Shown here piece after piece: positions 35,558-49,997 of a stretch of 64,000 nt of DNA (position 1 is the stretch's first letter; each line of letters starts with the position of its first letter). The notes under the pieces are model-generated. The model ran no database searches. It had not been told where the DNA came from and worked only from the letters and a program-made list of their open reading frames with translations. This DNA comes from a virus (taxonomy: Duplodnaviria; Heunggongvirae; Uroviricota; Caudoviricetes): IMG/VR virus record IMGVR_UViG_3300036768_001066; one strand, written 5' to 3'. Made by a program: the position numbers and the translations under genes.

Positions 35558-38101
35558 ATGGAAGTAATCGAAACTAAAACAGAGAAAAAATCCTACAGCT
35601 ACGCTGAGGTGCTCGAGAAGGCAAAAAGCTACTTCGGTGGCGACGAGTTGGCGGCGAGTGTTTGGATTAACAAGTACGCATTGAAGGATTCCGATGGCAA
35701 CATCTACGAGCTGACCCCGGAGGACATGCACCGTAGGATTGCGTCGGAGATCGCCAGGGTCGAGGCCAAGTTCCCGAACCCTGTGAGTGAGGAAGAGTTC
35801 TTTTCTCTACTCGATAGGTTCAGGTACATAATACCTCAAGGCAGCCCGATGGCAGGTATCGGCAACAACCTGCAGAAGATTTCTTTGTCCAACTGTTTCG
35901 TGGTTGGTAACCCAGACGGAATGGGTGATTCTTACGGTGGCATCATGAGGATAGACGAGCGCATTGCACAGCTACAGAAGAGGCGTTGTGGCGTGGGCAC
36001 GGACTTGTCCGACATTAGGCCAGCGGGCACTGCCGTCAATAATGCAGCAATCACGTCCACTGGTATAGTTCCATTCATGCAGCGCTATTCGAACACAACC
36101 CGAGAGGTCGCGCAGGATGGGCGTCGTGGGGCACTTATGTTGTCCGTTTCTATCCGGCACCCGGAGTCCGAGGCTTTCATCGATGCTAAGATGGATAGCA
36201 CGAAGGTCACCGGAGCTAACGTTTCTGTGAAGATCCACGATGATTTCATGGATGCCGTACTTGCGGGCCGGATGTACAAGCAGCAGTGGCCGATATACGG
36301 CGATGGGCGCATTCACAAGGAGATCGACGCCGCTGCATTATGGAAGAAGATCATTCATAATGCGTGGAAGTCTGCGGAGCCGGGCGTTTTGTTCTGGGAT
36401 AAGATCATTAAGGAATCTCCGGCCGATTGCTATTCTGCATTCGGGTTCAGGACCGTATCTACTAACCCGTGTGGTGAGTTGCCATTATGTTCTGGCGATT
36501 CTTGCCGATTACTTGCTTTGAATCTTTATGCGTATGTTCGTAATCCGTTCACTCCGGATGCTTACTTCGATTTTGAGTTGTTCGACAAGCACGTTCGCAT
36601 AGCGCAGAGGATGATGGACAATATTGTCGAGCTTGAGCTCGAGAAGATTGATGATATTATAACCAAAATCAAATCTGATCCAGAGAGCGCAGAGATTAAG
36701 TTCAACGAGCTTTCTATGTGGGAGGAGATTCGTCAGAAGTGCGCTAATGGTCGCAGGACTGGAACTGGTGTTACGGCCGAGGGTGATATGCTTGCAGCGC
36801 TTGGACTTCGTTATGGTACAAAGGAGGCAACTGCATTTGCCGAGTCTGTGCACAAGGCACTCGCCATATCCGCATACAAGAGTTCGGCAATTATGGCGAA
36901 GGAACGCGGCGCGTTTCCTATTTATGATGAGAAGCTCGAGGTCAACAATCCGTTCTTGAACAGGCTCAAGGAAGCAGACCCGGAGTTGCGCGAATTGCTC
37001 GCCAAGTACGGTCGTAGAAATATCGCTCTGTTGACCATAGCTCCTACCGGCACTGTGTCTTTGATGACGCAGACAACGTCAGGTGTAGAGTGCGCGTTCA
37101 TGGCTGCGTACATGCGTCGTAAGAAGATCAACCCTAACGACAAGAGCGCGAGGGTCGATTTCGTTGATGAGGTCGGAGATAGCTGGGAGGAGTATAACGT
37201 GTTCCACCACCACTTCAAAACCTGGATGATTGTCAACGGATACGATCCAGATGCGGTTGCTCACATGTCTACCGAGGAGCTCAATAAAGTAATTGAGAAG
37301 TCACCTTACTACAAGGCCATGGCTAATGATGTTGACTGGGTGGAGAAGGTTAACATGCAGGGTGCGATACAGAAATGGATTGACCACTCAATATCGGTTA
37401 CGGTTAACCTGCCCAATCACGTGACGGAGGAACTCGTAAACGAGGTTTACGTCGCGGCTTGGAAGGCCGGCTGCAAGGGTTGCACCATATACAGGGACGG
37501 GTCACGTTCCGGAGTTCTTGTGGAGAAGAAGGAGAAGGAGGAGGACAAGCCTAAGGCCAAGGACAATAATGCGCCTCGCCGTCCGAAGACTCTCGAGTGC
37601 GACATTCACAGGTTCATGAACAAGGGCGAACAGTGGATAGGTTTTGTTGGGCTGTTTGATGGCAGACCTTATGAAGTGTTCACAGGTAAGGCCGAGCACA
37701 TAAAGGTGCCCGGAAAGATCGATACTGGCCGTATACGCAAAACCAAAACCGACAGTGGATCAAAGTACGACTTCATCTACGTGGACAAGGGTGAGGAAGT
37801 TGTGGTTGAGTGGTTGAACAAGTCTTTCGACCCGCATTACTGGAATTACGCCAAGATGCTGTCAGGAATTCTGAGGCATGGAATGCCCCTGCCTTATGTG
37901 GTAGATCTTATCACTTCATTGAATCTCGATGACGAGGTGATAACCACGTGGAAGGGTGGCATCCAGAGGATGATCAAGAAGTACATCCCGGACGGCACTC
38001 GGGCGACCGATAAGAAGTGCAAGGACTGCGGGTCCGAGTCTGTAATATTCCAGGAGGGGTGTTTGACCTGTACTTCGTGTGGAAGTTCGAAATGTTCGTA
38101 A
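35558..38101 (+). CDS. nrdJ: ribonucleotide reductase, class II (adenosylcobalamin-dependent, NrdJ-type) with C-terminal zinc ribbon
   Basis: Active-site NPCGE(L). IAPTGTVSLM block. 847 aa. C-terminus CKDCGSESVIFQEGCLTCTSCGSSKC (Cys4 ribbon). Confidence 0.85.
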   Translation: MEVIETKTEKKSYSYAEVLEKAKSYFGGDELAASVWINKYALKDSDGNIYELTPEDMHRRIASEIARVEAKFPNPVSEEEFFSLLDRFRYIIPQGSPMAGIGNNLQKISLSNCFVVGNPDGMGDSYGGIMRIDERIAQLQKRRCGVGTDLSDIRPAGTAVNNAAITSTGIVPFMQRYSNTTREVAQDGRRGALMLSVSIRHPESEAFIDAKMDSTKVTGANVSVKIHDDFMDAVLAGRMYKQQWPIYGDGRIHKEIDAAALWKKIIHNAWKSAEPGVLFWDKIIKESPADCYSAFGFRTVSTNPCGELPLCSGDSCRLLALNLYAYVRNPFTPDAYFDFELFDKHVRIAQRMMDNIVELELEKIDDIITKIKSDPESAEIKFNELSMWEEIRQKCANGRRTGTGVTAEGDMLAALGLRYGTKEATAFAESVHKALAISAYKSSAIMAKERGAFPIYDEKLEVNNPFLNRLKEADPELRELLAKYGRRNIALLTIAPTGTVSLMTQTTSGVECAFMAAYMRRKKINPNDKSARVDFVDEVGDSWEEYNVFHHHFKTWMIVNGYDPDAVAHMSTEELNKVIEKSPYYKAMANDVDWVEKVNMQGAIQKWIDHSISVTVNLPNHVTEELVNEVYVAAWKAGCKGCTIYRDGSRSGVLVEKKEKEEDKPKAKDNNAPRRPKTLECDIHRFMNKGEQWIGFVGLFDGRPYEVFTGKAEHIKVPGKIDTGRIRKTKTDSGSKYDFIYVDKGEEVVVEWLNKSFDPHYWNYAKMLSGILRHGMPLPYVVDLITSLNLDDEVITTWKGGIQRMIKKYIPDGTRATDKKCKDCGSESVIFQEGCLTCTSCGSSKCS

Positions 38102-38551: not shown

Positions 38552-39688
38552 ATGAAAAAGTTGATGAAGTTTGGGGAGTATGCAACCCCGAAAGACTTGC
38601 GGAAAATATACCTGATTCCGCACTCGGATCGGTTCTCTTTCAGTCACATCGACCACCTTGTCCGACGTGTGGCGGAGAATCTGTTCGATCTCGTGATGGC
38701 GCCAGGTATTTTTAAAGACTCCATAAACTCCGAGCTGCCGGTTTACAACTATGGTAATCATGATGAGATATACGACCTGATAGAGAGCGGCGTTTTCAAA
38801 AAGAAGAACATATACAACCACCCCGATAACCTTAAGTACGCCAACGACAAGATAGAGTTCCACAAGGCGATGGATGGTCTTGACTTCGTGCCGAATACCG
38901 TGTTCAAGCAAGAGGACGTATCGAAGCTTAAGTTCCCCATAATAGCCAAACCCAAGGATGGTAGCAAAGGAGAGGGCATCACCGTATTTAAAACCAAGGA
39001 AGAACTTGACAGTTTTAAACCGGAGGACGAAGAATTCAAACTTGATTTGTTCAGCGAGAAGTTCGATCTGAAGAGGGAATTCAGGGTGATAACCGTAAAT
39101 GGCAAGAGGGTGTACATCGCCGAAAGGATCCCGATAAATGAGAAGGCCAAGAGTCTGAGGGAGAGTGCCAACATATTCCCGAGCAAGGACCTATTTGGTA
39201 AGAAGGGAACACTTGACGGTCGTAGCAGCTATAAGTGGGTCGAGATAAAGAACTCGGACCTCGACGATAAGGTGTGGAAGCAGATGGAGTCCATCATGCC
39301 GACTGTCTGTGAGAAACTGAAGCTGCAGGTTATGGGTCTCGACTTCGGTCTCGACTCGAAAGGCAAGGTGTGGATTATAGAAGCCAACACGTGCCCGGGT
39401 CTAAACAAGGACCAGATAGTCAGGATATACTTGGAGATATTTGAAGACTTCTATGGCCGCAAACCAGACGAGGTCACTATGAAGAAGATAAAGCAGATGC
39501 GCGACGAGCTTGTACGCGCGAGCAAGTCCAAGGTAAAGTTTTCGCACTCCGCATCGATGGGAAGAAGGATGGATTGGACCTATAAGGAGGACGGTCGCAA
39601 GACATCTAACGTTAAATTCGATGTTGAGAAGAGCTTTGGCCAGACGCTGAATAGTATTAAGGACCGCGCTAAAAAGAAGAAGATATGA
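38552..39688 (+). CDS. ATP-grasp domain enzyme (RimK-like ligase)
   Basis: PIIAKPKDGSKGEGI (ATP-binding loop), KREFRV, MGLDFGLD and WIIEANTCPGL (ATP-grasp C-terminal signature). Confidence 0.7.
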   Translation: MKKLMKFGEYATPKDLRKIYLIPHSDRFSFSHIDHLVRRVAENLFDLVMAPGIFKDSINSELPVYNYGNHDEIYDLIESGVFKKKNIYNHPDNLKYANDKIEFHKAMDGLDFVPNTVFKQEDVSKLKFPIIAKPKDGSKGEGITVFKTKEELDSFKPEDEEFKLDLFSEKFDLKREFRVITVNGKRVYIAERIPINEKAKSLRESANIFPSKDLFGKKGTLDGRSSYKWVEIKNSDLDDKVWKQMESIMPTVCEKLKLQVMGLDFGLDSKGKVWIIEANTCPGLNKDQIVRIYLEIFEDFYGRKPDEVTMKKIKQMRDELVRASKSKVKFSHSASMGRRMDWTYKEDGRKTSNVKFDVEKSFGQTLNSIKDRAKKKKI

Positions 39689-40380: not shown

Positions 40381-41219
40381 ATGGAAATATATACGGGAGC
40401 AGCTGTTTATATAATTAAAAATTTAACTACCTCTAAATTTTATGTAGGTTCTGCTATAAACTATTATCAACGATTCTACCATAAAAGTTCTGGACATCTT
40501 GCTAAGTTAAATAAGGGATTACACCATAATATCTACCTACAACGTGCTTGGAACAAATACGGACAAATCGACTTCGTATTTGATATTATAGAAAAAATAG
40601 AAGATGTACATAAGTTGCTTGAACGCGAACAATTTTTTATAGATATACTGAGAGCATGTGAATATGGATATAATATAAACCCCACAGCCGGCAGCAGGTA
40701 TGGTACGATATTATCTGATGAGATAAAGAATAAAATTAGTAAATCGAGAACTGGTAAATGCGTTGGTACTGATAACGGATTTTTTGGTAAACAACATTCT
40801 GTAGAAACTAAGAAGATAATTAGTGATGCTAATAAAGGTCGGTTTATTGGTAGTGCTAATCCATTTTTGGTAAACAACATTCTGTAGAAACTAAGAAGAT
40901 AATTAGTGATGCTAATAAAGGTTGGGTTATGTCAGATGAAACAAAAACTAAAATATCAGAATCGATGTCGGGTACCAACAATCCAATGTTCGGTATTAAA
41001 AAATTTGGTAAAGCCAATCCATTTTATGGAAAAACTCATAATAAAGATACCAGAGATAAGATACGAAAAACTAAGAAAAATTTAATGCCGATTGACATGC
41101 GTACCGAAGATGACCAAATAATTCACTTCGATAGTTTAAATCTTGCTGTTAAGCACAGTGGTTTACATAAAAATACTATAAAAAATTGTGTGTTTCCGGT
41201 AAATCTAAAAATGGTATGA
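40381..41219 (+). pseudogene. GIY-YIG homing endonuclease with NUMOD3-like repeats, reading frame broken by an 83-bp insertion carrying a 59-bp direct repeat
   Basis: N-terminus VYIIKNLTTSKFYVGSAINYYQRFYHKSSGH (GIY-YIG). ORF1 stops at 40887. ORF2 (frame 0) is open from 40860 and re-encodes FGKQHSVETKKIISDANKG from the second repeat copy. Deleting 83 bp (40781-40863) restores one ~250-aa ORF with NUMOD3-type motifs (GKQHSVETKKIIS, GKTHNKDTRDKIRKT). Confidence 0.55.
40781..40922. repeat. 59-bp perfect direct repeat (40781-40839 and 40864-40922) separated by 24 bp
   Basis: TTTTTGGTAAACAACATTCTGTAGAAACTAAGAAGATAATTAGTGATGCTAATAAAGGT occurs twice. Period is 83 bp, not a multiple of 3. Confidence 0.8.
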
Positions 41220-45906: not shown

Positions 45907-46650
45907 TTATATTTTTGACCAGTTCTCTGGCAACAAGTCCTTTGTATCGAGGTTGTCGTACGCAGGTCCGAACCATTTGCCAGGCGCTATAACTCGTTTG
46001 TTGGGGTTTTTATTAAGGTACGCGCCCCACCAGCTGAAGCTCGAGTTTGCTATGACGTTGTGCTTGCACTTGGACATCAACATCAGGTCGTATACGTCCG
46101 GGTGCTGCTCGTCTACAAAAACAAACTTATTACCTACAAAATTCTCCCTACACCAGTTTATATCGTCAGAGAATATGACAAACGTACAATCACCCATCAC
46201 CTCCATAGCCCTGGTGTAATATGCCATGGGCATGACCGGATGGTGTTGCGACAGATTCACATAGTCCGTCCTCCTTATATGCAAAGAACAGGTATTGTCT
46301 CCGAACGATGCCGCGAGCGCGTCTATTTTTTCGGCGTGCTCTGGCTTTAGCTCGAAGTACCCGAGAGCCTCCTCTTTGTACTTGTCGAAGTACCGCCATG
46401 ACTGCAGGTATCCTACAATATCAAAGATGCCCTCGCCGACCTTTATCTCGCCGTAATGAAACCCTACCTCGTCCACCTTCGTAGCCGGCACTATTCCGGC
46501 AGGGAGCTCTTTTTTCATGTAGTGTGAGTACTTCCACTCTGGGAATATGTATTCGTGTCCGTTGGCGCGAGCTATTCCAATAACGGATGCTATCTGGAAC
46601 ATCTGGTTGCCGAGGCGGCCGTATTTGCCGAGATTGCTGAATGTTATCAT
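45907..46650 (-). CDS. alpha-1,2-fucosyltransferase (GT11 family)
   Basis: Canonical GT11 motif I GRLGNQMFQIAS at the N-terminus. HIRRTDY motif. C-terminal SSFSWWGAYL motif. Confidence 0.8.
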   Translation of the reverse strand: MITFSNLGKYGRLGNQMFQIASVIGIARANGHEYIFPEWKYSHYMKKELPAGIVPATKVDEVGFHYGEIKVGEGIFDIVGYLQSWRYFDKYKEEALGYFELKPEHAEKIDALAASFGDNTCSLHIRRTDYVNLSQHHPVMPMAYYTRAMEVMGDCTFVIFSDDINWCRENFVGNKFVFVDEQHPDVYDLMLMSKCKHNVIANSSFSWWGAYLNKNPNKRVIAPGKWFGPAYDNLDTKDLLPENWSKI

Positions 46651-47552
46651 AGACCTCTAATGTATTTCTTAGTTTTATCGTCAAGCTCTCCAGTTATGTC
46701 CATGCCGTTATCCGATTGCCACTGTATTATGGCCGCTCTTGTCTGTTCGTCGTATACACCAGTGCAGGACACGTTCATGCCGAGATGTATCATTCGGTTT
46801 TGCATTATTATTATATCGGTGTTACAGTCTCCGAACTTTGGGATGTATTCTGAAGGTTGTTCGTACGGGTAGAACTTGTAGTACGAATTGTTTATTATGC
46901 CGTCATCGTCCGGGTAGAAGTGGAAGTAGTCCCACGCGTATAATTTTTTAATTCGTTCAACCTGCTCCGGGAATGGGACGTACGAGTCCTTGTCAGATAT
47001 GTTCTCCCTGAAGTCCGGAACGTTTGTGCCGAGGATCTGGTTTATTCGTGGTATGACAGGGCCGTCTTCTATCCGCAGTATGTGGTTGAACCGGTCCCTT
47101 ATCGGTCCTTTGTGGCAGTTGTGGTTGTCCGGAAACAGGCACTGCAGATTTAGATGGTGCTCTATATTGGAGTCCATGTCCCGTTCTTCCAGAAACCTCA
47201 GCAGGTCCTCCATCCGCTCAATCTTGTGTTTGTTCAGGTTTGTCACACCGAGCACTTCAAGAACAGAATGGTTCAAAACCGACACAAGTCTGTCCACTGG
47301 GTTGCGGGTCACGAGGATGCTTACGTAGTCCTTTAAATTTTCGTCGTTGGATATTTTGAACGGGATTTCTATGTAGGGTACGACCATGTGCACCCTGTTG
47401 GAGGGCAGAGAAACCCCGTTGCCGTTTATCAATGCCACGTGCGAGTAGGTATCGCGGTCGACGAAGTAGAACCAGTTTTTGAGAGACGTGCAGGCGCACC
47501 TCGCGTTCCAGTACAGTATGAATTTTCTATTGCCGTTTATCAGTGGATACAT
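46647..47552 (-). CDS. sulfotransferase-like domain fused to a C-terminal peptidoglycan-binding (PG_binding_1-like) domain
   Basis: ILVTRNPVDRLVS matches the sulfotransferase 3'-phosphate-binding motif (RxPxxRxxS). C-terminus TGVYDEQTRAAIIQWQSDNGMDITGELDDKTKKYI matches the PG-binding helix repeats. Start at ATG 47552 overlapping the upstream stop (TAATG). Confidence 0.5.
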   Translation of the reverse strand: MYPLINGNRKFILYWNARCACTSLKNWFYFVDRDTYSHVALINGNGVSLPSNRVHMVVPYIEIPFKISNDENLKDYVSILVTRNPVDRLVSVLNHSVLEVLGVTNLNKHKIERMEDLLRFLEERDMDSNIEHHLNLQCLFPDNHNCHKGPIRDRFNHILRIEDGPVIPRINQILGTNVPDFRENISDKDSYVPFPEQVERIKKLYAWDYFHFYPDDDGIINNSYYKFYPYEQPSEYIPKFGDCNTDIIIMQNRMIHLGMNVSCTGVYDEQTRAAIIQWQSDNGMDITGELDDKTKKYIRGL

Positions 47553-48172
47553 TATTGTCCTGGAGGTTTCATTAGTCTGGTGTAGTCCATATATGCGTTC
47601 TGTATGTCGCTGTGCCCCGGCTTCTGCCACGCTATGCTCGGATTGAACACGTAGCAGTTGTGTGTTTTCTGAAAATCGGTATACGTGACGTCTATCTGGG
47701 ATTTGAACTTCTCCACCTCTGCTATCACCTCGGCCGCCATCTTCTTGGTTATGCCGTAGTGGCTCGTCGTGTACGTCCTAACTATCTTGGACACATTTTG
47801 CGTCACCGGTATCGGGTGGGCTATGTGGTTGCCCCCGAGATACAGCATGTCCCAATCGGCAGGCACCTGACCGATCCATTGGTGGAACTGGGCCGGCGCG
47901 TGCACGGAGAACTCTATGTCGTCCTCGAGGATCAGAATCCTCTCCCATCCCTCGTGCAGCATTCTCTTTAGAATGGTGGTGTGACTTAGCGAACACCCGA
48001 CTTCGCCAGGCGTTATTGCACAGTTTGGCGGCAATGCAATGGTGCTTCCGTCGACTGCGGAGAACCGTACGACGTCGATGCCGGCCTGCTCGAATTCCTT
48101 CAGGCACAGTTCCCATTTGTCAGTACGCTTATCAAGGTTGACGCAGAATATCTTGTCGAAGTACTTATTCAT
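47552..48172 (-). CDS. GT25-family glycosyltransferase
   Basis: IFCVNLDKRTDKW ... EVGCSLSHTTIL ... ILEDDIEF, typical of the GT25 family. Confidence 0.7.
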   Translation of the reverse strand: MNKYFDKIFCVNLDKRTDKWELCLKEFEQAGIDVVRFSAVDGSTIALPPNCAITPGEVGCSLSHTTILKRMLHEGWERILILEDDIEFSVHAPAQFHQWIGQVPADWDMLYLGGNHIAHPIPVTQNVSKIVRTYTTSHYGITKKMAAEVIAEVEKFKSQIDVTYTDFQKTHNCYVFNPSIAWQKPGHSDIQNAYMDYTRLMKPPGQ

Positions 48173-48482
48173 CTTTGTCTTTTATTCTTTTTATCAGATC
48201 CACCATTTTATTGACCGTATCAAAGTTCTCCGGTATCGCGAGAGCGTCCGGCACCTGTATGTCGAACTCATTCTCTATGAACACCAGCACGACCACCATC
48301 GAAAACGAGTCGATGTATCCGCCGTTTATCAGTGACGTATCATAATTGACATCGAACAAATCGTTGCACGTACACTTCTCAAATGGAGCATAGCAGTACG
48401 AGTAGTGGTGCCTCCTGTTTTCGCTGCGGTCTTGACTACCGAATTCTTTCTTTATGTAGTTAAGGATTATATCCTTCATCAC
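48165..48482 (-). CDS. acyl/aminoacyl carrier protein-like (ACP/DltC-like)
   Basis: GGYIDSFSMVVVLVFIENEFDIQVPD resembles the ACP helix-II motif with a DSxS phosphopantetheine site. Four-helix-length C-terminal 70 aa. N-terminal 35-aa extension is atypical. Confidence 0.45.
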   Translation of the reverse strand: MMKDIILNYIKKEFGSQDRSENRRHHYSYCYAPFEKCTCNDLFDVNYDTSLINGGYIDSFSMVVVLVFIENEFDIQVPDALAIPENFDTVNKMVDLIKRIKDKDE

Positions 48483-49063
48483 ACTATATTATTTTTTACG
48501 AACTCCCTTATGTACACAGGGTCTTGTATGTGTATCATGTTGTCGCTAAGTTCCTTCTGAAGGAACCCGTATTTGTCCGCATAATCATTGTAAACATCCA
48601 CAAATAAGAAATCGTTGGCGCCACACAGTTCTTTGTACCTTTCGTTCATGTACCTTATGTACTCTGCGCGCTCCGCATCTTCCCCATAAAATGGGAAATC
48701 CACGTTCTCTTTAGCATCCGCCTTCCTGAGGGTCGGAGGGATGTTGTACACCATGACCTTCACCCCTGGCATCTTTTCGATGTTGGCATTTATGGCCTCG
48801 AAGTAATTTTTTGCGATACTGTCCATCAGCATCCTGCTGCTCGACCTGAATTTGCCTATGTGGCACCTGCAGTCTATCTCTCCGAACGAGAAGCATACGT
48901 AATCGCCGGGCGCCACATTGAACCTCGGCTCGGATATATCCAGTATCTCCAATTTCTTACGGCCGAAACTCTGCGCCGTTATCGGTCCTATCCTGTTTGT
49001 AGAAACCCCCTCGATCTGGTCCCAGGCGAACCAAGCGTGACTATCTCCGAACGTATGAATCAT
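48479..49063 (-). CDS. SGNH/GDSL-family hydrolase or acyltransferase
   Basis: Block I IHTFGDSHAW (GDS-H) at the N-terminus. About 190 aa, typical of single-domain SGNH proteins. Immediately downstream of the carrier-protein gene. Confidence 0.5.
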   Translation of the reverse strand: MIHTFGDSHAWFAWDQIEGVSTNRIGPITAQSFGRKKLEILDISEPRFNVAPGDYVCFSFGEIDCRCHIGKFRSSSRMLMDSIAKNYFEAINANIEKMPGVKVMVYNIPPTLRKADAKENVDFPFYGEDAERAEYIRYMNERYKELCGANDFLFVDVYNDYADKYGFLQKELSDNMIHIQDPVYIREFVKNNIV

Positions 49064-49997
49064 TAGTTACCAGGTTTTTAATTTTGTCCGCCATGTGGTT
49101 CCACGTATAGTTGCGGTGAACCAGTTCGCAACCTGCCTGCGATATTCTTATCCTCTCGTCCTTGTTCCTCTCGTCAAGGTAGTATTCTATAAGTTCATCG
49201 AGTTCATCCAAATCGTGCCATACTCTTATATTGATCTTGTCTTCAAAATCGAGTTCTATGCCGGGGTACCACTTAGACAAGCACAGTGCCCCGCTGCCCA
49301 TTAGGCGTAGCATGCGGTCTGATGTGTACCTGAGCGCGTCGAAGTGTGACACGTTTATGGCCACCTTAGAGCTCCTGTAGCACTCGGCCTCCTTGGCCTC
49401 CCTGTACATGAAGTTACGCATGTCGTTACCCCACCCGAATCCGTACACTCCGAAATTTGTACCGTACTTGGACGACAGCGTGTTGACCATCTTGATTCTA
49501 TAGTCTGCCAGGGGGAAATCGTAGTCTTCCTTTGGGTAGTTGTTGCCCATGAAAACTATCTGTGGGTATTCTCCCACGCCACCGTCTGGCCTGAATATAT
49601 CATCGTTGAATCCGCTCTGGATGAACTCGGCGTTCATGCCGAGGGCGCGCATGAACATAACATCCTCATCGTTGGTGAACGCGGTTACGTCCACGGACCT
49701 CCCACAATCAATCATCCACTGAGGCGTAAGTTTTCGAAAGTCCCAGGTCCAGTTCACCTTAAACCCCGGTAGCTTGGCGAGCACCTCCGGCGTGTAGACA
49801 CCCGGTGATTGCACGTGCAGGAATATCAGGTCTGGTTTGAACCGCTCGGCCGTCTCTAACGTCTTCGCGTGAAGAGCCGCCGTGTTGTTGGGCACGGAGG
49901 TCCACAGAGTCCAGTCGAGGAACAGGTATTCGCTCGATGCGTCCGATAACGCCTTGCAGAGTGCGGGTACGGTAAATCCTATGTGCAGGGTCCTCAT
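49041..49997 (-). CDS. glycosyltransferase (CgeB/GT4-like C-terminal domain)
   Basis: About 320 aa. C-terminal half with ...VAINVSHFDALRYTSDRMLRLMGSGALCL... resembles CgeB-type GT-B domains. First gene of the minus-strand glycan block. Confidence 0.5.
   Translation of the reverse strand: MRTLHIGFTVPALCKALSDASSEYLFLDWTLWTSVPNNTAALHAKTLETAERFKPDLIFLHVQSPGVYTPEVLAKLPGFKVNWTWDFRKLTPQWMIDCGRSVDVTAFTNDEDVMFMRALGMNAEFIQSGFNDDIFRPDGGVGEYPQIVFMGNNYPKEDYDFPLADYRIKMVNTLSSKYGTNFGVYGFGWGNDMRNFMYREAKEAECYRSSKVAINVSHFDALRYTSDRMLRLMGSGALCLSKWYPGIELDFEDKINIRVWHDLDELDELIEYYLDERNKDERIRISQAGCELVHRNYTWNHMADKIKNLVTNDSYVRR

Follow-up and report, generated by a model that had tools for sequence, protein, structure and literature searches.

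In bacteria, known O-acylation of glycopolymers proceeds through membrane relays in which an MBOAT or AT3 protein is followed by an SGNH protein, and a carrier protein takes part in the Dlt system only. In the Dlt relay, D-alanine is passed from the carrier DltC to the MBOAT protein DltB, to a tyrosine of DltX and to a serine of DltD, a membrane-anchored, extracytoplasmic protein, before it reaches teichoic acid, whereas the non-Dlt MBOAT/SGNH pathways use acetyl-CoA and no carrier (PMC12148441). SGNH O-acetyltransferases and esterases act on sugar hydroxyls by a covalent acyl-serine mechanism (PMC12148441). WcbI, a capsule enzyme of Burkholderia pseudomallei, is able to bind both CoA and acetyl-CoA, and in its crystal structure the acetyl group is contacted by Cys14 and His201; by itself WcbI shows no activity, and the authors of that work proposed that it lacks a partner (PMC4104973). 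Here, we analysed a stretch of 64,000 nucleotides (called the window for simplicity) from the IMG/VR virus record IMGVR_UViG_3300036768_001066 (Caudoviricetes), in which two overlapping genes of a glycan-decoration island encode a DltC-like carrier and a soluble SGNH-fold protein. The pairing of the two recurs across viral loci, and the genes may together serve a soluble, carrier-dependent O-acylation of a phage-made glycan.

Positions 48165 to 49063 hold two open reading frames (ORFs), both on the minus strand (Table 1). The initial annotation had given these coordinates and the motifs DSFS and GDSH correctly, but had described the carrier gene as lying immediately upstream of the SGNH gene; the direction of transcription shows the reverse order, SGNH first and carrier second, with the stop codon of the former overlapping the start codon of the latter. 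The carrier start called by JGI is the ATG at 48479, and the residue numbering used here runs from the GTG at 48482. The SGNH gene further overlaps the preceding GT1-like glycosyltransferase gene by 23 nt and the carrier gene the following GT25 gene by 8 nt; since overlaps are found at every junction, the four genes constitute a single compact transcription unit. In the closest relative, viral locus L267 (carrier 87% and SGNH 81% identical), the order SGNH-carrier-GT25-sulfotransferase is kept and the SGNH-to-carrier junction is identical in kind (GGAATGAAGG). Between the window and L267, the ratio of non-synonymous to synonymous differences per site (pN/pS) is about 0.075 for the carrier and 0.13 for SGNH, with pN at 0.06-0.10 and synonymous sites saturated. 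Homologues number 75 for the carrier and more than 171 for the SGNH protein. The two genes are genuine and conserved, and purifying selection acts on both. Syntenic island L265 has the GT25 gene directly after the GT1-like gene, with no SGNH-carrier pair between them, indicating that SGNH and carrier form a two-gene cassette inserted at that junction.

The single carrier sequence matched the Pfam family PP-binding below threshold (E=0.005, 17.5 bits versus a gathering score of 20.8). A profile of the carrier family compared with solved structures matched the carrier domain of Bmp1 (6cxt, E=1e-11) and also several peptidyl carriers and DltC (about 1e-5 to 1e-6; DltC about 7e-6) as well as aminoacyl carrier proteins. 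The best NCBIfam match was DltC, at 37.2 bits versus a cut-off of 68 (NF003464) and 28.3 versus 52.35 (TIGR01688). Judged from these matches, the phage protein is a carrier resembling DltC and peptidyl carrier proteins, and not a member of the DltC equivalog. Asp58, Ser59 and Phe60 are invariant in an alignment of 26 carrier homologues (alignment A1). The AlphaFold (AF2) model (pLDDT 81) contains four helices (residues 2-14, 59-73, 84-87 and 90-104), places Ser59, the putative phosphopantetheine site, at the N-terminus of helix II, and returned carrier proteins as all 50 top matches of a Foldseek search of the PDB, with template modelling (TM) scores of 0.85-0.88 for PigG (7thn/7thq) and about 0.75 for DltC. 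The reading of the 105-residue protein as similar to an acyl carrier protein (ACP) was thereby borne out by family profile, AF2 model and Foldseek; structure prediction, which the initial annotation had proposed as a check, returned a four-helix carrier fold with the serine at the start of helix II.

A peculiarity of the phage carrier is an insert of about 25 residues in loop 1 with the sequence H-Y-S-Y-C-x6-C-x-C. The motif H-x3-C-x6-C-x-C is present in 33 of 33 unique insert-type carriers (29 by a strict regular expression, four as H-x3-C variants). The insert is absent from the short carriers of 76-86 residues, be they cellular or viral, and is found solely in viral copies. Because AF2 confidence is low across the insert (about 50), metal binding can only be inferred from the motif, which would suit a possible metal-binding (zinc) knuckle. 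To our knowledge, such a Cys/His insert is unprecedented among carrier proteins.

The SGNH protein is a divergent member of the SGNH/GDSL superfamily, recognised by its modelled fold. The Pfam family Lipase_GDSL_2 matched it below threshold (E=3e-6, 28.2 bits versus 32.9). The AF2 model (pLDDT 93) begins with strand 1 at residues 2-6 and gave 63 Foldseek matches in the PDB at E<=0.001; among the matches listed, all were SGNH enzymes or SGNH-based designs. The nearest solved folds were Bacteroides sialate O-acetylesterases, GDSL lipases, PAF-AH and PatB, at TM scores of about 0.65 and about 15% identity. Invariant in 46 family members (alignment A2) are Gly6, Asp7, Ser8, His9, Gly61, Glu62, Asp64, Cys65, Arg66 and His178, and at least 90% of the sequences share Asp174. 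In an alignment with solved SGNH proteins, the C-terminal block matches their block V (DGVH), and His178 falls at the position of the block V histidine. The block II glycine corresponds to the invariant Gly61, and Asn107 at the block III position (Y-N-[IV]-P-P) is kept in most sequences and replaced by cysteine in one subclade. The earlier SGNH assignment is therefore upheld by a confident fold, invariant Ser8 and His178 and a near-invariant Asp174 as the putative third member of the set. Neither of the two grounds for rejection named in the initial annotation, a fold unlike that of a carrier protein or a missing triad, was observed. The protein gave no Pfam DltD match and no NCBIfam match at E<=1. 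As the polypeptide starts directly with the catalytic strand and the catalytic serine is already reached at residue 8, it carries neither signal peptide nor membrane anchor and must be cytoplasmic. The family also has an invariant motif of its own, G-E-I-D-C-R-(C)-H, which follows the block II glycine (residues 61-68, window positions 48860-48880). Together with the invariant His9 (49037-49039) next to the catalytic serine, it makes up a second Cys/His cluster, which may serve to bind metal, as another nucleophile or for redox switching.

Table 1. Positions in the window of the carrier-SGNH gene pair, of its putative functional sites and of the other genes considered.
Feature	Position	Strand	Basis or remark
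SGNH-like protein, 194 residues, starts MIHTFGDSH; predicted O-acyltransferase or esterase acting through an acyl-enzyme	48479..49063	-	ORF, Pfam, family alignment and AF2
Putative catalytic codon, SGNH Ser8	49040-49042	-	
Putative catalytic codon, SGNH Asp174	48542-48544	-	
Putative catalytic codon, SGNH His178	48530-48532	-	
Carrier-like protein, 105 residues from GTG 48482 or 104 residues from ATG 48479	48165..48482	-	
ATGA overlap, SGNH stop TGA and carrier start ATG	48479..48482	-	Translational coupling; read from sequence
Putative phosphopantetheine-site codon, carrier Ser59	48306-48308	-	
Loop-1 insert of the carrier, residues 15-41, H-x3-C-x6-C-x-C (His26, Cys30, Cys37, Cys39)	48360..48440	-	Alignment A1
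GT1-like glycosyltransferase (Glyco_trans_1_2), upstream operon neighbour	49041..49997	-	Pfam E=1.8e-18
GT25 glycosyltransferase, downstream operon neighbour	47552..48172	-	Pfam E=2.2e-15; order kept in L267
ATP-grasp ligase, judged outside the module	38552..39688	+	Pfam ATP-grasp (YheCD, sugar-transfer-associated, Ddl-like)

Loci with carrier homologues were gathered from viral, metagenomic and genomic collections and their neighbouring genes were classified, yielding 37 non-redundant viral carriers. The next gene on the same strand belongs to the present SGNH family in 15-16 of the 37, with both gene orders represented, and to the WcbI family in 5, a DUF1919-like family in 3, DUF1796 in 2 and the radical SAM/SPASM proteins in 1; in 12, several of them at contig ends, nothing next to the carrier could be recognised. 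About 25 of the 37 adjoin or are fused to a nucleophile-first polysaccharide-modifying enzyme (SGNH, WcbI, DUF1796 or DUF1919-like). In-frame fusions were found for carrier-SGNH (L042, 304 residues), DUF1796-carrier (L014 and L015, 338 residues) and carrier-DUF1919-like (L052, 320 residues). A rough binomial estimate, made on loci that are not fully independent, puts the probability of the SGNH adjacency arising by chance at p~2e-7. Carrier and SGNH protein are very probably functionally coupled.

The four partner families all open with a strand followed by a serine or cysteine (GDSH, [ST/TN/AN]-C-Q, G-D-[CR]-C and S-N-x-C), and the viral WcbI-like partners (L016:10290-11153, L025-L028 and L034) retain Cys12 and His201. 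When the SGNH family and the WcbI-like partners were compared for shared ancestry, hhalign gave a probability of 0.7%, and homology is consequently not claimed. No paper on the function of DUF1796 or DUF1919 was found in the literature. What stands out most in this analysis is that insert-bearing viral carriers pair with four families of enzymes. A generalisation from it, which we regard as tentative and rather doubtful, is that large phages encode their own class of Cys3His carriers, which would be primed and loaded by the host (by a phosphopantetheinyl transferase and the AcsA-type ligase of Bacteroidota) and would pass a short acyl group directly to at least four families of soluble, cytoplasmic, nucleophile-first O-acyltransferases without any MBOAT protein.

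A different use of the carrier, as a subunit that gives structure or regulation to a glycan enzyme and is neither catalytic nor an acyl donor, can be imagined after AcpM in complex with EmbA/EmbB, after AftD or after acyl-ACP with WaaP. The ACP-arabinosyltransferase complexes 7bvc and 7bwr are indeed among the fold matches of the carrier, and AftD-ACP and WaaP-acyl-ACP are described in the literature. The invariance of Asp58-Ser59 and the pairing with enzymes bearing an N-terminal Ser or Cys nucleophile are, however, most simply explained by thioester chemistry, and we consider a mere subunit role very improbable.

Two other ORFs in these loci were considered and set aside. A radical SAM/SPASM protein of about 240 residues recurs in phage glycan islands (L001:10299-11024, L004:10954-11586, L265:12533-13261), directly after the carrier in some and in carrier-less islands elsewhere; as it has no homologue in the window and is present in L265 without a carrier, it lies outside the core module. 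A 102-residue ORF in front of a second SGNH gene in L004 was checked as a second carrier and is not one. The SGNH family itself is much larger than the carrier family, with 230 relatives in IMG/VR including giant-virus bins. It is spread over viral contigs (L185-L264), many of them labelled giant-virus metagenome-assembled genomes (GVMAG), where it usually lies among sulfotransferases, methyltransferases and glycosyltransferases without a carrier. One hit labelled as a Nitrospina metagenome-assembled genome (MAG; P0109, L007) lies in phage-like surroundings.

The cellular relatives of the carrier, from Bacteroidales and related MAGs, comprise 81-86 residues and are devoid of the Cys3His insert. 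Viral and cellular carriers are 50-58% identical over residues 44-103 (helices II-IV), and the helix II sequence G-Y-[IV]-D-S-F-S-M-V is nearly the same in both. Wherever the upstream flank is present, the cellular carrier gene directly follows a gene for an AMP-forming ligase, and AMP-binding matches were obtained for 131 ORFs across about 130 cellular loci (L058-L184). The ligase of L105 (6223-7956), the only one tested, scores 757 bits against the NCBIfam equivalog for acetate--CoA ligase, above its cut-off of 729. Two sets of genes follow the cellular carrier: either a DltB-like MBOAT protein with a DltD/DUF1574-like membrane SGNH protein, or two Kbl-type glycine C-acetyltransferases (574 bits, cut-off 460) with a methyltransferase. 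Examples of the Bacteroidales operons are L106:6231-10742 and L105:6223-11879. The MBOAT version resembles an acetate-type counterpart of the Dlt relay in Gram-negative bacteria; no paper on an AcsA-carrier-MBOAT system was found in the literature. The acetate-type ligase ahead of the cellular carriers suggests a short acyl cargo, acetyl or other. That the cargo is acetyl specifically is conceivable, though we lean against taking it as settled.

Within the phage sequences, no loading system came to light. A motif scan of the 64-kb window for adenylation motifs A3/A5/A8, phosphopantetheinyl transferases and MBOAT motifs found none, and tblastn across the window and 1.42 Mb of viral carrier/SGNH loci returned no homologue of the Bacteroidales ligase, Kbl, MBOAT or DltD-like proteins. 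The initial annotation had seen no adenylation enzyme adjacent to the pair, and none is present anywhere in the window; the genome search for an MBOAT or adenylation partner that it had recommended likewise found neither in the window or the viral loci. No adenylation enzyme lies near any of the 37 viral carriers. Queries for phosphopantetheinyl transferases with AcpS and Sfp sequences gave no phmmer match, a weak negative as it had no positive control. The roughly 10 kb beyond the left end of the window contain T4-like structural genes only and no loader or phosphopantetheinyl transferase. For this phage, the loader search covered the window and these roughly 10 kb to its left, out of a contig of 373,759 bp.

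The one candidate loader that had been put forward within the island is the ATP-grasp ligase (Table 1), which would charge the carrier and feed a DltD-like SGNH protein in a Dlt-style aminoacylation. ATP-grasp enzymes, such as the ADP-forming acyl-CoA synthetases, form acyl-phosphates that are open to attack by thiols, the best NCBIfam match of the carrier is DltC, and the ligase lies in the same island. The ORF is genuine, but co-occurrence and synteny speak against the role assigned to it. It lies 9 kb away on the opposite strand, beyond a GIY-YIG homing endonuclease; a homologue occurs in none of the carrier loci; and it is kept in the syntenic islands L265 (65% identical) and L266 (46% identical), which are both carrier-less even at a permissive hidden Markov model (HMM) threshold. 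Further, there is no MBOAT protein, DltX or membrane DltD in the window or the viral loci, and carrier and SGNH protein score below the Dlt equivalog cut-offs or are unmatched. We therefore regard loading by this ligase as highly unlikely. In L266, the ATP-grasp gene is followed by a GATase/peptidase C26 gene, a neighbourhood that suggests amide or peptide chemistry for the ATP-grasp enzyme.

Our preferred reading is a soluble, carrier-dependent O-acylation of a phage glycan with direct hand-off from carrier to SGNH protein, and as a complete mechanism we give it an even chance of being right. The carrier would be phosphopantetheinylated on Ser59 and would hold a short acyl group, most likely acetyl, as a thioester. 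The soluble SGNH protein would take the acyl group onto Ser8, where His178 and Asp174 would act as base and relay and Gly61 would contribute to the oxyanion hole, and would then pass the acyl group on to a hydroxyl of the phage-made glycan. Priming and loading would fall to enzymes that are not encoded nearby, possibly a host phosphopantetheinyl transferase and, by analogy with the cellular operons, an AcsA-type ligase of a Bacteroidota host. The two folds with their catalytic or attachment residues, the coupling of the genes and the recurrent pairing are observed; we infer that the hand-off is direct, that the acyl group is transferred and not hydrolysed off, which acyl group it is, and that priming and loading come from outside. 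The broader proposal of the initial annotation, a carrier-mediated decoration step for the glycan, gains support from the pairing of the two genes and from their setting in a glycan-decoration island.

Several observations weigh against this reading. Neither a loading nor a priming enzyme turned up in the window, in the roughly 10 kb to its left or among the viral loci. Acetyl was assigned from the HMM name of the ligase of cellular relatives and not from the phage. Asp174 stands at H-4 (D-x3-H), one residue off the canonical SGNH spacing D-x2-H, and sequence alone cannot separate transfer from hydrolysis. Among the 80 best viral SGNH loci, only one has a carrier within 6 kb, so that the family generally needs no carrier, and L265 has an SGNH paralogue (35% identical) at another position without a carrier. 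Nor could a clean carrier-linked SGNH subfamily including the window protein be delineated, as the latter falls outside the clade that holds most carrier-linked SGNH proteins in a neighbour-joining tree without support values and with biased sampling.

The carrier-less SGNH loci (79 of the 80) and the carrier-less paralogue in L265 would also suit two independent genes, the SGNH protein using acetyl-CoA or de-esterifying a sugar and the carrier serving a radical SAM/SPASM protein or a glycosyltransferase. The arrangement in L001-L003 and L037, where a radical SAM/SPASM gene follows the carrier and the SGNH gene is 3.7 kb away, points in the same direction. Against such independence stand the ATGA coupling, the L042 fusion and the adjacency in both gene orders in 15-16 of the 37 viral carriers; moreover, carriers without SGNH are paired with other nucleophile-first enzymes, in some cases by fusion, and the window has no radical SAM homologue. 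We thus consider independent genes unlikely. With one in 80 SGNH loci having a carrier and most viral carriers having a partner, the dependence is one-directional.

Adjacency and fusion would be expected just as well of a carrier-directed hydrolase. The SGNH protein might be a thioesterase that releases or proofreads a carrier-bound product, in the manner of the SGNH thioesterase TesA or of type II thioesterases, and attachment of the product to the glycan would fall to another enzyme. Hydrolysis of acyl-ACP and acyl-CoA thioesters by SGNH enzymes is established, as in the case of E. coli TesA, and esterases (sialate O-acetylesterases, PAF-AH and GDSL lipases) make up most of the nearest solved folds. 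On the other hand, the window and the viral loci contain no ketosynthase, condensation or adenylation domains with which a carrier-bound intermediate could be built, and the alternative partners WcbI, DUF1796 and DUF1919 are drawn from polysaccharide loci, in which the activity being looked for is O-acetyl transfer. In comparison with the O-acyltransferase that we favour, a thioesterase appears improbable.

The window is part of the contig of a T4-like huge phage with SbcCD-like, DnaB, RnlA-like and ribonucleotide reductase (RNR) genes, and genes for T4 gp15, gp2 and the portal lie just beyond its left end. No nucleotide similarity to deposited phages was found, and protein matches were only distant, to uncultured megaphages. 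Downstream of the GT25 gene, a sulfotransferase (PF03567) is fused to a C-terminal PG_binding_1 domain (46647-47630, minus strand), an architecture shared with L267 and odd for an enzyme of an apparently cytoplasmic glycan island. The gene for the RNR large subunit (35558-38101, plus strand) lies amid the glycosyltransferase island, between a GT2-methyltransferase gene and the ATP-grasp gene, and this placement is kept in L265. Also in the island, a trough of 41% GC contains a homing endonuclease gene of the GIY-YIG/NUMOD3 type and, separately, an ORF with NUMOD3 alone (both within 40381-41219, plus strand); L266 carries a GIY-YIG gene in a similar location.

If true, a soluble hand-off from carrier to SGNH protein in the glycan factory of a virus would represent the chemistry of the membrane relays in a different arrangement. 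The comparative pattern further provides a testable partner hypothesis for WcbI, a virulence-linked capsule enzyme, and would, if true, name the type of its sought partner. It also offers a first functional lead for DUF1796 and DUF1919, which are common in capsule and exopolysaccharide loci, and brings to light an uncharacterised Dlt-like pathway of Bacteroidales that starts from an acetate-type ligase. Finally, there is a hint that phages may exploit an acyl-loading enzyme of the host through a look-alike carrier.

Type II carriers (the Bmp1 domain, PigG, PltL and the Bradyrhizobium aminoacyl carriers) are the best sequence-profile and structural matches of the phage carrier and share with it the stand-alone four-helix form and the serine at the start of helix II. 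They are, however, loaded by adjacent adenylation or aminoacyl-tRNA synthetase-like ligases and feed the tailoring steps of secondary metabolism, whereas the phage carrier has no ligase nearby and lies in a glycan context. PatB, the C-terminal domain of OatA and sialate O-acetylesterase have the fold of the phage SGNH protein, the block I GDS and the block V histidine in common with it. These glycan enzymes are extracytoplasmic, and their acetyl is supplied by the acetyl-tyrosine of an MBOAT or AT3 partner and by no carrier protein; the phage enzyme also differs from them in its D-x3-H spacing and in its own G-E-I-D-C-R-C-H motif. WcbI (PF18588) takes the place of the SGNH protein beside viral carriers in 5-6 loci and binds the pantetheine-containing CoA, but it uses a Cys/His pair in place of Ser/His, and the window contains no WcbI gene. 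The Bacteroidales operons hold the closest cellular relatives of the phage carrier; there, the carriers feed membrane or pyridoxal phosphate enzymes instead of a soluble SGNH protein.

With the Dlt system, the phage pair shares a carrier of the same sequence type as DltC, DltC structures being among both the profile and the fold matches, an SGNH-fold enzyme with a serine nucleophile as the putative last acyl-handling step, and the decoration of a glycopolymer as the probable purpose. Cellular homologues of the phage carrier do occur in Dlt-like operons with a DltB-like MBOAT protein and a DltD-like protein. The differences lie in the relay itself. The phage lacks a DltA-type adenylation enzyme, an MBOAT protein, DltX and a membrane DltD in the window and in 1.4 Mb of viral loci, and its SGNH protein is soluble, cytoplasmic and matches no DltD model. 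The phage carrier has a Cys3His insert that DltC does not have, and its cargo is probably a short acyl group and not D-alanine. DltC never meets DltD directly (PMC12148441), while a direct hand-off is implied for the phage pair. Of the parallel to DltC and DltD drawn in the initial annotation, the carrier type and the acyl-serine chemistry of the SGNH protein hold, and the Dlt mechanism, with its MBOAT protein, DltX and membrane anchor, finds no support. By analogy, the phage pair is like the two ends of the Dlt relay joined directly in the cytoplasm, made up of proteins that stand outside the Dlt families.

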